Shown in pieces: positions 31,566-35,032 of a stretch of DNA of 64,000 bases. Under the pieces are notes generated by a model, which saw nothing but the letters and a program-made list of their open reading frames with translations, was not told the DNA's origin and did no database searches. The stretch's first letter is position 1. Every line of letters begins with the position of its first letter. The stretch covers positions 384,001-448,000 of the forward strand of contig CAVRCJ010000010.1 in assembly GCA_963719515.1 (NCBI GenBank), read 5' to 3'. This DNA comes from an uncultured cyanobacterium. GTDB lineage: Bacteria; Cyanobacteriota; Cyanobacteriia; CAKZMO01. The translations under genes were made by a program, and so were the position numbers.

Positions 31566-31847
31566 CTATGTGAGTACGTCGAGCGAACGCAGCCGCATCA
31601 TGTAAAACAGGATCTGCCCCTGGCTGGGGGTGATGTTGACGCCGCTGGGGCCAATCTCGATGGGTCCGGTCCACATGGCCTGCTCGACATAGCGCTTGAT
31701 GTGCAGCCGGTGGATGGTTTCGCGGACGCCTTCGGGGGAGCCGATGATGACGTGGCGGATCACTTCACCGCTGGGACCGGGGTCGGGGGTGGCCAGCAGG
31801 GTGGGTGCTGCCTCGGATTGAGGCAGTTCGGGGTATAAGAATGTCAT
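31566..31847 (-). CDS. Small hypothetical protein (IRHVIIGSPEGVRETIHRLH motif)
   Basis: 93-aa ORF with host-like codon use, immediately downstream of a structured leader. Confidence 0.65.
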   Translation of the reverse strand: MTFLYPELPQSEAAPTLLATPDPGPSGEVIRHVIIGSPEGVRETIHRLHIKRYVEQAMWTGPIEIGPSGVNITPSQGQILFYMMRLRSLDVLT

Positions 31848-31873
31848 GGGTTTTCTCTTTTTTTGATGGTAAG

Positions 31874-32035
31874 AAAACCCAAAAACTCGGTCGATCCCTT
31901 GTCTTGGGCGTCTGGGATGGCTGCAGATATTGGATAATACCTGCAGCTCATCGACAGCTCGTGCCTGTCGAAGGGTCAGGGCGCGATCGCCATCGTTAGT
32001 GACGGTCGCGTCCGTTAGACCAAATTTTTGGGGTT
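31874..32035 (-). ncRNA. Putative multi-stem structured RNA or 5' leader
   Basis: ~18-bp closing helix (aaacccaaaaactcggtc / gaccaaatttttggggtt) enclosing four hairpins: atccc..gggat; gctgcagatatt..aatacctgcagc; tcgacag..ctgtcga; gggcgcgatcgcca..tgacggtcgcgtcc. Confidence 0.55.
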
Positions 32036-32199
32036 GTGATCAAGCTGAATCGAGTTACAGCTTCTAGCAGGTTAATCTACCCTATCTGTGGCCGAAAAGA
32101 CAAGCCCTAGTTTTTTGGGGTGTGGTTTACTGGGGCGATCGCTGGCTGGATAGCTGTGGGTAACTTCTGTGTGCGCTAGTGGGGGGATGTTTTGAAAGG

Positions 32200-32421
32200 T
32201 TGGGGGTGTGAGTGCGCTCAAATCTTTGCGGTGCGGGGGATGGGGCGTTTGGGGCTGGTGGGGAGGTTAGCGCGATCGCTGAAACTGTCGTGGTGAGAGG
32301 GTTTGAGTTGTTACAGTCTTGTGATGTTTATGGCGAGTTGGTGGTGGAAGGGCTATTCTTGAGGGGATTAGCGAAAATGAACCTTGAAAACTTGATAGGC
32401 ACTCCGTTTCAAAGTGCCGCA
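32200..32421 (+). promoter_or_regulatory. CRISPR leader
   Basis: Non-coding; directly abuts the non-degenerate end of the array; contains ctgaaa..gggtttgag and ttgaaaa..cgtttcaaa motifs. Confidence 0.7.
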
Positions 32422-33401
32422 GTCGCAATGACCTAATACCCCGAAAGGGGATTGAAACATGGGACAATGCTCTATATGGACTCCGGTCTTATTGTCGCAA
32501 TGACCTAATACCCCGAAAGGGGATTGAAACATATCTTAGGTGATCGTCTGTATCTTCCAGATCATAGTCGCAATGACCTAATACCCCGAAAGGGGATTGA
32601 AACAGAGAACCTGGCTTCAAGGCAGCGGTATACAGTAAGTCGCAATGACCTAATACCCCGAAAGGGGATTGAAACATCGAATATATCTCGACTACCCTGA
32701 TATGCAAATGTCGCAATGACCTAATACCCCGAAAGGGGATTGAAACGCCGTCGCGGTCCTTTATTGAGGTTATGGAGAGAGTCGCAATGACCTAATACCC
32801 CGAAAGGGGATTGAAACGACCTAAGGCGCACCGACTACCTGGACATTGAAGGTCGCAATGACCTAATACCCCGAAAGGGGATTGAAACACGCTGGTTTTG
32901 CCGCTGCCGGTTTCCCCGGCGATCGCGGTCGCAATGACCTAATATCCCGAAAGGGGATTGAAACGTCTTGTTGAGCTGCGGAAACACAAAGCTGCGCAGT
33001 CGCAATGACCTAATACCCCGAAAGGGGATTGAAACAAAGATAGTAGAGGTACTATCGGGCCACAGTAGCTTACCCGTCGCAATGACCTAATACCCCGAAA
33101 GGGGATTGAAACCAAACATTGACGCGACATAACGACCAGACGGAAGTCGCAATGACCTAATACCCCGAAAGGGGATTGAAACGGCGGTTTATCAGTCGGG
33201 ATCGGGTGCGTCGGCGATGTCGCAATGACCTAATACCCCGAAAGGGGATTGAAACGTACTGACGTGGCCAATGGCGCTATCTAGCTCATTGTCGCAATGA
33301 CCTAATACCCCGAAAGGGGATTGAAACGTGCTGGCGGCCAAGCCTACGGCCTGAATAGGGTGGGGTCGCAATGACCTAATACCCCGAAAGGGGATTGAAG
33401 C
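32422..33401 (+). CRISPR. CRISPR array, 14 repeats / 13 spacers (33-40 nt), no cas genes in window
   Basis: 37-nt repeat GTCGCAATGACCTAATACCCCGAAAGGGGATTGAAAC with CCCC-GAAA-GGGG hairpin. Repeat 8 has C>T; the last repeat ends GAAGC. A 37-nt ATTGAAAC-ending repeat is typical of cyanobacterial type I-D (inference). Confidence 0.99.
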
Positions 33402-33673
33402 ACTGCATTCAGACCGAGACAGATATTGATGAAAAGATTGCAATGATCCAAATATCCTGCAATCAACTATGTTTATCTCCAGAAGGACACAAAGCAAAAA
33501 TTGGGATTGCCAGGACCAGTGCAGAGTCGCCAAAATCAACTTTTCGCGCAGCACAAACAGTCAACCTCCTCAAGCGACCAATCGAAAGCTGAACCGCTAC
33601 ACAACAAAGTGAAGCAGACACAACTACCGCGCGTTCAGAGTTCTAAAACCTTCAATGTCCTGCGTCCGCCTCA

Positions 33674-33826
33674 GAGGGCGTTTGAAAAGTCACAAAAGTG
33701 CTGCATTACCCCCTCTAACTCCCCCTTGCTAAGGGGGAGAACTCCAACTTCCCCCCTTAGCAAGGGGGGACTGAGGGGGGTGAATCAGGAGCATACTGCT
33801 CCAACCGATACTTTTCAAACATCCTC
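33674..33826. mobile_element. 153-bp MITE with IS5 (IS1031-group)-like ends, carrying REP-like palindromes
   Basis: TIRs GAGGGCGTTTGAAAAGT / ACTTTTCAAACATCCTC (15/17), flanked by a TCA direct repeat (33671-33673, 33827-33829); internal cccccttgctaaggggg and ccccccttagcaagggggg. Confidence 0.8.
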
Positions 33827-33868
33827 TCAGAACCACCCACCATCTAACCAACTCAAAAGAGGCAACCC

Positions 33869-35032
33869 TTACCCCACAGCAGCCTCCAACCCACCAGCCA
33901 GCGGCAGCCGACATTCCACCCTGCTCCAGCCCTCCTCATCCAAATCCCCCTCCCCAGACGGCGTCTCCAACAACGCCAGCTCCCCCCCCATCAGCGCCAT
34001 CAGCTGCTGACAGGTCATCATCGTCAACCCCACAGACGCATCCGAAAGACTCGCTTGTGTTTCAGAAGCCATCTCATACAGCGCCTTAGGGTCCGGCACG
34101 CTTTGCAGCAGCTCACAAGACTCCGACCAGGCCGCCGCCGGACGCTGGTCAGCTATCTTAATCAGCGCCTGCCCCCCCTGAATCTCCACACCGAGGCGAA
34201 TATAGCCGCTCTCCATCAGGTAAATCGGAGCCGTCAGCAAATGCAGCAGCACCTGCAGCAGCCGCTGGCGATCGCCATAAACCTCAATAGAATCTTCAGG
34301 GTGCTCAATAGTCAGCCTCAGATTGCGGTTTTGGGCCTGAATTTGCACCACCTGCTCCACCTCCAGCAGAATCTCATTCAGGTCAACGCTAGTCATCACA
34401 AGCGCCGCTCTGCCATGCTCCAGCTTAGAGAGTTCAGTCAGCTGGTCCAAAAGCTTCAGCAGCTTCAGGGCAGCGCCGTGGGCCTGACCCACAAACTCCC
34501 GCTCTTCTTCCGGGCTATCGCATAGATCCGTCAAAATCAGCTGATGCAGACCAATGACGCTGTTGAGAGGCGATCGCAGCTCATGGGAGGTGCGGGCCAA
34601 AAACCCCGCCTTCAGCTGGGCCATCTCCGCAGCGAGGTGGTACGCCAGCTGCCACTGGTCTTGCCCTGGAGCTTGCTCAGGCTGTGGATTAGGGTTTGGG
34701 ATGATACCTGGGTCAGTCTCTGGGCCAGCGCCTGAGCTAGACACCAGAGTCGTAGCCTGCTGCCCCTCATTGGGCAACCCAGCAGCAGCTGACCCGGCAC
34801 CAGATGGCCCGGCACCAGATGACCCAGCACCAGATGGCCCGGCACCAGATGACCCAGCATCAGAGTGAGCAGAGTCAGGAGACTGGTGAACAGAGTCAGG
34901 AGACTGCATCGCCCCTGCGCACCCCGCTCGCTCCGGGCCATTGCGCGACTCAAATTGAGGCCGAACGAGCCACCCCAGCGCACCACCGGCCAAGACACCG
35001 CTACTCAACCACACCATCGCCGTCCAGTCCAT
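33869..35032 (-). CDS. Membrane-anchored histidine-kinase-like protein with degenerate ATPase domain
   Basis: N-terminal TM; H-box FLARTSHELRSPLN; N and G boxes not canonical. Confidence 0.8.
   Translation of the reverse strand: MDWTAMVWLSSGVLAGGALGWLVRPQFESRNGPERAGCAGAMQSPDSVHQSPDSAHSDAGSSGAGPSGAGSSGAGPSGAGSAAAGLPNEGQQATTLVSSSGAGPETDPGIIPNPNPQPEQAPGQDQWQLAYHLAAEMAQLKAGFLARTSHELRSPLNSVIGLHQLILTDLCDSPEEEREFVGQAHGAALKLLKLLDQLTELSKLEHGRAALVMTSVDLNEILLEVEQVVQIQAQNRNLRLTIEHPEDSIEVYGDRQRLLQVLLHLLTAPIYLMESGYIRLGVEIQGGQALIKIADQRPAAAWSESCELLQSVPDPKALYEMASETQASLSDASVGLTMMTCQQLMALMGGELALLETPSGEGDLDEEGWSRVECRLPLAGGLEAAVG

Follow-up and report, generated by a model that had tools for sequence, protein, structure and literature searches.

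In the RepA_N plasmids of Staphylococcus, pSK41 RNAI is a counter-transcribed RNA of ~83 nt that binds the leader ~100 nt upstream of the start, and it is proposed to induce a stem-loop that hides the ribosome-binding site (PMC5703833). In the attenuators of pT181 (RNAI) and pIP501 (RNAIII), the antisense promoter lies midway in a long leader, and a 'pre-emptor' farther upstream occupies the 5' arm of the regulatory stem by pairing with it, until removed by the antisense RNA (PMC5703833). Among the type I loci, SymE is a non-membrane example and is presented as an exception to the typical toxins (PMC2887945).

The locus described here lies in a window of 64,000 nucleotides, the whole stretch of DNA that was analyzed, from an uncultured cyanobacterium. 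This stretch holds one of ~60 promoter-leader-gene cassettes in the same genome. The cassette is real, uncatalogued, and multicopy, and it is most likely unrelated to the CRISPR array that adjoins it. Sequence comparisons suggest that a small antisense RNA from the opposite strand probably switches off translation of the small protein that the cassette encodes.

Leader fold and the adjoining gene

The cassette gene encodes a 93-amino-acid protein (31566-31847, minus strand), and this ORF was already listed in a first-pass annotation of the window, which placed the end of an RNA fold ~27 nt before the ATG. The ATG is at 31847, and the gap is 30 nt. The strong folding claimed in that annotation was borne out: the minus strand of 31860-32045 has a z-score of -6.5, and none of 200 shuffles folded as well. 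The plus strand of the same interval also folds better than its shuffles (z -4.5). The leader fold (31878-32032, minus strand) is closed by helix P1, which pairs 32032-32018 with 31892-31878. This closing helix is present as described, but it has 15 bp, or 17 at most with a bulge, rather than ~18. The remaining helices of the five-way junction are the hairpins P2 (32013-31979), P3 (31970-31952), P4 (31947-31920), and P5 (31918-31894), all on the minus strand. The leader also has a 5' hairpin, H0 (32042-32063, minus strand), in which 95% of the cells are paired and four of the seven pairs show two-sided change. Two mismatches in the closing helix and one in the gctgcag stem become G-U pairs on the ORF strand, as the earlier reading had it, and the fourth hairpin, which had been called 'mixed', is P2 (31979-32013), with A·C mismatches on that strand.

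The five-way junction is absent from the minimum free energy structure of the single sequence, but all five of its helices are backed by covariation. Imposing it on the window copy costs 2.3 kcal/mol; the corresponding figures for the other copies, unlike this one, are inflated by misregistered pairs. The window gave no Rfam match at gathering score and only chance-level matches at E<=10. The covariance models of Rfam 15 likewise returned no match at gathering score in 20 distant homologous loci, and none of those for known riboswitch classes matched the leader. Missing from the first-pass annotation were the cassette's own promoter, the hairpin at the 5' end of the leader, the hairpin at the ribosome site, which lies within its ~27-nt gap, the predicted antisense promoter, and the existence of many copies of the locus.

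All six helices (H0 and P1-P5) covary. Of the cells, 91% are paired in the 44 leaders used for training and 88-89% in two further sets, of 40 and 60 leaders, whose alignments were fitted to the model. Two-sided changes were found at 29, 40, and 39 of the 51 pairs in the sets of 44, 40, and 60 leaders, respectively, and both shuffled and slid controls gave far lower pairing. In a sequence-only alignment of 144 leaders, which are related and amount to ~59 effective sequences, the top mutual-information pairs fall in P2, P3, P1, P5, and H0. A mutual-information scan for pseudoknots found no consistent additional pair.

Ribosome-binding-site hairpin

A further hairpin covers the ribosome-binding site (31848-31880, minus strand). 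Its 5' GGG (31880-31878) is also the end of P1, and it represents the predicted OFF state, the five-way fold being the predicted target and ON state. The two arms of this hairpin pair better with each other than with the arms of other copies (median -16.1 versus -10.3 kcal/mol). It reaches -7 kcal/mol or better in 77 of 82 leaders, with 35 different arms, and it covaries across subfamilies. The GGG is common to this hairpin and P1 in 79 of the 82 leaders. The overlap of P1 with this hairpin is no more than 2-5 nt, and for the most part the two can coexist. Opening the ribosome site in the free leader costs 8.0 kcal/mol, as against 8.5 in a crude set of 60 ordinary genes. Both observations speak against an intrinsic switch of great strength.

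In four leaders from three lineages (L045, L051, L178, and L001), the GGG hairpin has decayed, and P4 holds a 10-13 nt complement of the ribosome site. A general role of the P4 complement as a substitute was not supported over 142 leaders (rank correlation 0.008), nor was pairing of the P4 loop with the start codon as a general feature.

Predicted promoter and multicopy cassettes in the genome

The predicted sense promoter (32074-32103, minus strand) consists of a -35 box TTGTCT at 32103-32098, an 18-nt spacer, and a -10 box TAGATT at 32079-32074, and in the window copy it would start transcription near 32065-32068 on the minus strand. A strict promoter scan did not list it. The pattern TTGnnn-16/18-TAnnnT, in the interval -243 to -273 relative to the start codon, is found in 58 of 59 copies, compared with 3.2% of random windows, and at 24 of 28 and 56 of 60 loci in other genomes. 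A HIP1 octamer (32135-32142) lies 32-39 nt upstream of the -35 box; HIP1 occurs within 150 nt upstream in 36 of 59 copies, compared with 17% for comparable non-coding stretches. LexA and NtcA boxes were at chance level among 136 promoters.

The protein profile matches 81 places in this genome, some of which are fragments of one gene. Leader profiles identified 60 full leaders, 44 of the window type and 16 of a second type, and a start codon could be assigned for 59 of them. At the median, copies are homologous from the -35 box to the stop codon, and the cassette is most likely a self-contained unit of ~540 bp between these two limits. The closest pair of copies is 94% identical. The ORF is visibly broken in six of the 59 copies, and its start is uncertain in one. 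Neighboring genes vary from copy to copy; the 48 upstream neighbors include six Uma2, five TIR-domain, and four restriction-modification genes, as raw counts without a background rate. The cassettes L025, L038, L050, and L057 adjoin psbA-family genes. Divergent leader variants with a different or longer fold stand before family genes at G000 C6:31270, C7:22289, C15:56670, C10:752159, C11:490375, and C11:67255.

For 131 of 136 leaders, the nearest other leader belongs to the same genus; the expansions are therefore lineage specific. Ten of 22 copies from congeners have a flank in common with a copy in this genome, and no clean empty site was found among these 22 congener loci. Synteny breaks at the cassettes in all seven loci with both flanks mapped, which was not taken as evidence because the flanks themselves are fragmented. 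A MITE or recent insertion sequence was rejected, as the copies have no shared ends, no near-identical members, and no clean empty sites; target-site duplications were inspected by eye, in the flanks of copies only. The genome does contain a true miniature element of ~400 bp, with at least 45 copies at 98-99% identity (e.g., G000 C1:181497-181895). On C1, a cassette leader is interrupted by an insertion that contains one copy of this element.

Occurrence in other cyanobacteria

A covariance model built from the 44 leaders matched 25 of 101 genomes of the class, from eight families, and 11 of 151 genomes in a sample of the phylum. The protein was found in 31 of 251 genomes, a lower bound from a loose first look, and also on Nostocales plasmids; its named relatives are all cyanobacterial hypothetical proteins. 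The loci inspected were the 28 non-self loci returned by the leader model and 60 picked from its 150 listed matches. A family ORF follows the leader in 24 of the 28 and 59 of the 60, that is, in 83 of 88 loci from other genomes. Of the five loci without it, three are at a contig edge, one has a gap, and one is a partial match.

Some family members lack the long leader. In one cyanobacterial family, 11 of 32 genomes encode the protein, and none of 24 has the long leader. An HTH or RHH regulator gene is adjacent in 12 of 20 sampled loci without the long leader, a raw count without a background rate. At G000 C14:59994 and C5:122674, both inspected by eye, and in L064, L065, and L080-L082, leaderless members are divergent from small XRE-type HTH genes or, on plasmids, from ParG-like RHH genes, once directly before rep. 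In L067, L070, and L072, an unnamed family of 113-119 aa with no Pfam match is encoded just upstream of the leaderless members, on the same strand. A short leader in L061, L062, L068, L069, L071, L073, L075, and L079 has one hairpin, then a CUAACCC-like sequence, and then the ribosome site. By eye, the short leaders of family members resemble P2 and the subsequent junction alone.

Signals on the opposite strand

The 'mixed' hairpin, which had been set aside in the first-pass annotation, is the main clue to how the leader works. Over the 144 leaders, P2 on the ORF strand has 243 A·C against 20 G·U cells, and P3 has 37 against 12. The other helices have the reverse preference, with A·C/G·U counts of 24/133 in H0, 25/217 in P1, 58/94 in P4, and 12/83 in P5. 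The wobble bias of P2 thus points to the opposite strand, which suggests that P2 is selected there. The opposite strand gives the better fold of P2 in 134 of 144 leaders, compared with 57 of 144 for the internal control of P3-P5.

The P4 loop holds a predicted antisense -10 box (31933-31938, plus strand). A strict TAnnnT is present on the opposite strand of this loop in 119 of 144 leaders, compared with a mean of 31 and a maximum of 50 in shuffles. Its consensus is TA.aAT, TAAAAT and TACAAT being the most frequent forms; the window copy has GATAAT, a relaxed form rather than a strict TAnnnT. The match lies 13-18 nt from P3, a range that follows from choosing the match nearest to 16 nt. The sense strand of P4 contains TAnnnT in 72 of 144 leaders, so that part of the -10 signal is due to the AT-rich loop. 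An antisense -35 box is not conserved, as matches of four in six letters occur in 19 of 144 leaders, equal to the number at wrong spacings. Promoters with only a -10 box are common in cyanobacteria. No clear antisense terminator was found, and the tail has at least five U in 72 of 144 leaders.

The cis-encoded antisense RNA predicted from this box would have ~85-90 nt and extend from 31945 to ~32030 on the plus strand, its 3' end being uncertain. It is predicted to fold into stem-loop 1 (31946-31976) and stem-loop 2 (31979-32013), and its predicted tail is complementary to the 5' arm of P1. In the window copy, the predicted RNA folds at -39.7 kcal/mol, compared with -31.6 for the sense strand. 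Across the leaders, a predicted RNA starting 7 nt past the -10 box has two adjacent large hairpins in all 143 cases, the first of which begins no more than 4 nt from the predicted start. The median stability is -39.4 kcal/mol for antisense and -27.2 for sense, and antisense is the more stable in 140 of the 143 leaders. The near-invariant junction sequence is the base of the first antisense hairpin. Among the 44 copies of this genome, loop length is kept (seven letters in 38), and the sequences of the two antisense loops vary, being distinct in all 44 and in 41, respectively. A YUNR motif is found in antisense loop 2 in 75 of 143 leaders, compared with 39 when shuffled.

Proposed mechanism of translational control

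We consider it probable that the cassette is an antisense-controlled translational attenuator. At the beginning of the proposed process, the consensus promoter would give an mRNA with a leader of ~220 nt. The leader alone could close the five-way fold, which would tie up the GGG needed to seal the ribosome-binding site, and some protein would therefore be made. The counter-promoter in the P4 loop would produce the two-hairpin RNA of ~85-90 nt, which is complementary to the 5' half of the leader. This antisense RNA may contact its target via loops of 6-8 nt, capture the 5' arm of P1, and release the GGG. The freed GGG would then allow the hairpin over the Shine-Dalgarno sequence and start codon to form, and translation would be off. 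Because the loops differ among copies, the antisense RNA of each of the ~60 cassettes would act mainly on the cassette that encodes it. Both transcripts, the loop-loop binding, the direction of control, and the copy specificity are inferred.

The direction of control was modeled by masking the stretch that the antisense RNA would cover, after which the ribosome site cost 10.5 rather than 6.9 kcal/mol to open. The cost went up in 103 and down in six of the 140 leaders modeled (of 144 rows), with a single control mask, and masking any competitor favors the remaining hairpin. When only the hairpins were masked and the P1 arm was left free, the cost was 7.7 kcal/mol. In the window copy, masking the antisense stretch changed it from 4.9 to 9.2, and the hairpin then reaches over the start codon. 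Since masking raises the opening cost, the five-way fold is predicted to be the ON target and the antisense-bound form the OFF state. The first-pass suggestion of cis-regulation therefore stands in part: RNA and ORF are coupled in 83 of 88 loci, and an antisense RNA is predicted on the opposite strand, but the analogy with the phage C4/CI system that accompanied it fails at the feature that defines that system, a target for the leader loops in the same transcript.

Other explanations of the leader

Two alternatives explain the leader as an RNA without the opposite strand. It could be a sense-only translational ON switch, in which a metabolite, an ion, or a protein, perhaps its own product, binds the junction, locks P1, and frees the ribosome site. 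The junction has invariant, unpaired-looking nucleotides (CUrACCC, and AU in the P4 loop), locking it makes the ribosome site easier to open in 40 of 44 copies (5.4 instead of 8.1 kcal/mol), and the leader is strictly coupled to a single gene family. On the antisense reading, however, these invariant nucleotides belong to the -10 box of the opposite strand and to the foot of antisense stem-loop 1. An aptamer would not be expected to have loops that are hypervariable in sequence but constant in length, and the near absence of G·U and the common A·C in P2 would be left without an explanation, which makes such a switch unlikely. It is highly improbable that the leader is processed out of the mRNA as a separate structured RNA with a function of its own and that the ribosome-site hairpin does no more than damp translation at a fixed level. 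The ability of P1 and that hairpin to coexist for the most part is compatible with such an RNA, as are the leaders that stay intact where the ORF is broken, but the leader is hardly found without the ORF, and the GGG overlap is preserved in 79 of 82 leaders. The preferred reading, control by an antisense RNA, accounts for the strand bias of P2.

Two further explanations invoke a mobile element or the CRISPR array. P2 could be a single-stranded DNA hairpin that an HUH-type enzyme (REP or IS200/IS605-like) reads on the opposite strand, the cassette being a non-autonomous mobile element with secondary RNA features. G·T pairs on one DNA strand would yield an equal bias, a conserved GGGTYAG lies at the 5' foot of the hairpin on the opposite strand, and both the expansion within genera (131 of 136 nearest leaders) and the broken ORFs (6 of 59) would fit. 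This explanation is very unlikely, since P2 is internal rather than terminal, homology stops without a common end sequence, at the -35 box on one side and the stop codon on the other, and the -10 box is left unexplained. In addition, the closest copies are 94% identical, against dozens at 98-99% for the true miniature element of this genome, and none of the 22 congener loci offers a clean empty site.

A regulator or addiction module tied to the adjoining CRISPR array, a link that had been raised as possible in the first-pass annotation, is extremely improbable. The array (32422-33401, plus strand; 14 repeats) is a neighbor only, with a leader at ~32110-32421 and no adjacent cas genes. The cassette stands back-to-back with the array leader here and with a real array in L123, which belongs to another family, and the predicted antisense promoter is directed toward the array. 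A real array, however, stands beside only one of 59 copies in this genome and, within ~1.5 kb, at one of 88 other loci. A family gene lies within 1 kb of one of the five arrays in the genome, and the other four, which have none within 3 kb, are 3.4-42 kb away from one. The cassette has no repeat-like or spacer-like sequence, its complementarity to the CRISPR repeat and spacers never exceeding 10 nt. Three congeners whose flanks are long enough carry other genes behind cfa, with neither cassette nor array. The adjacency looks incidental, a shared residence in variable DNA.

The only cas1 match in the genome is partial and lies on contig C5. The last ~50 nt of the array leader (32370-32421) match the leader of the contig C6 array (G000 C6:213056-213107). 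Repeat matches in L010, L013, L021, L056, and L104 were rejected as arrays because they are tandem or protein repeats, and L182, with three palindromic copies, was not scored as a CRISPR array. Behind the array, nested inverted repeats occupy 33670-33830 of the window; the same ~160-bp element is frequent in four congeners and is probably another miniature repeat. A 15-nt tandem repeat lies within a histidine-kinase gene at 34762-34879.

Encoded protein

The 93-aa protein belongs to an unnamed cyanobacterial family with 609 relatives at 50% clustering. Its model has a disordered, proline-rich N-terminus and a beta-alpha-beta core at residues 27-88 (pLDDT 74.8). The proteins of intact copies have 79-158 aa, and dN/dS among intact paralogues is ~0.5. 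Pfam, PHROG, and NCBIfam contain no family for it, the ESM Atlas returned only unnamed cyanobacterial clusters and no named match, and no phage match was found. Fold searches yielded no clear match: the best Z values, 3.7-4.0, were for MinE, uS10, and PII-like half-ferredoxin arrangements and were equaled by unrelated rows, and Foldseek had no match at E<=0.001. No longer or fused form was present among 8000 candidates of 309-2000 aa, which is weak evidence.

One plasmid carries a relative next to a separate rep gene. A plasmid copy-number region with a replication initiator was rejected as an identity for the cassette, since its 93-aa product, with a core of ~60 aa, has no family in Pfam, PHROG, or NCBIfam. 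The 79-158 aa length and the soluble beta-alpha-beta model likewise led to the rejection of a typical type I toxin, which is hydrophobic and shorter than 60 aa. The protein may be an effector that derives from a mobile element, inhibits growth or is costly in some other way, and has to be kept scarce, at somewhat less than even chances. More speculatively, filamentous cyanobacteria could carry up to ~60 mutually insulated RNA-antitoxin cassettes per genome, addressed by hypervariable loops. The small soluble toxins that they encode would form a new class, kept in check by HTH or RHH repressors in other lineages, and the cassettes would act as dispersed addiction or stress-arrest units that stabilize adjacent accessory DNA; we hold this wider proposal as doubtful.

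Comparison with known systems

If the antisense reading is correct, the cassettes form an uncatalogued family of antisense-RNA control for cyanobacteria, with a copy number far above that of known antisense cassettes. Each cell would then hold dozens of natural orthogonal RNA-RNA pairs, which could serve as a test of loop-set specificity and as regulatory parts. A riboswitch look-alike recognized by covariation would then be an antisense target, which only the strand bias of its wobble pairs reveals. A protein family of 609 clusters without annotation would also become testable once its brake is known. In the literature searched, the family is undescribed; this is weak evidence on the antisense reading, since the searching preceded it. 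The parts of PMC2864571, PMC5737381, and PMC8632094 that are available contain no such motif, and their supplements may list motifs outside Rfam.

The cassette can be compared with several described systems at the level of arrangement. C4 RNA is cut from the same strand as its targets and pairs with them in its own transcript. As in the C4/CI system of phages P1 and P4 (RF01695), a structured leader RNA precedes small genes of mobile origin, an origin that is putative for the cassette. C4 models gave no match at E<=10, and no loop of the leader is complementary to its own ORF beyond chance. In nine of ten leader segments, complementarity to the own ORF equaled that to other ORFs and to shuffled sequences; the slight excess of the P4 loop was gone over 139 leaders. 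Like the downstream-peptide and glnA riboswitches (PMC2864571), the cassette has a cyanobacterial 5' leader before short ORFs of no known family. Unlike them, it has another size and fold, and its leader has no Rfam match.

The copy number of the cassette is ~tenfold above that of ldr and ibs. As in the type I loci ldr/rdl, ibs/sib, and symE/symR (PMC2887945), chromosomal cassettes are repeated through lineage-specific duplication, and a small RNA, predicted in the present case, lies opposite the 5' end of a small gene. Typical type I toxins in that source are hydrophobic and shorter than 60 aa, whereas the cassette protein has a soluble beta-alpha-beta model and 90-130 aa. Plasmids of the pT181/pIP501 type use XRE-HTH or RHH Cop repressors (PMC5703833), and the same two kinds of regulator adjoin leaderless members of this family. 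The pT181 and pIP501 attenuators act by a terminator, whereas the stem that would be induced in the cassette has no U tract and covers the Shine-Dalgarno sequence; control is therefore predicted at the level of translation.

The cassette resembles the pSK41 RNAI system in a predicted RNA of ~85-90 nt, in a 5' end ~100 nt upstream of the ATG, and in the same predicted outcome. Unlike pSK41, its gene encodes a protein of ~90-130 aa of no known family and no replication initiator, and it is present as ~60 chromosomal copies with distinct loops. No sequence homology is claimed.
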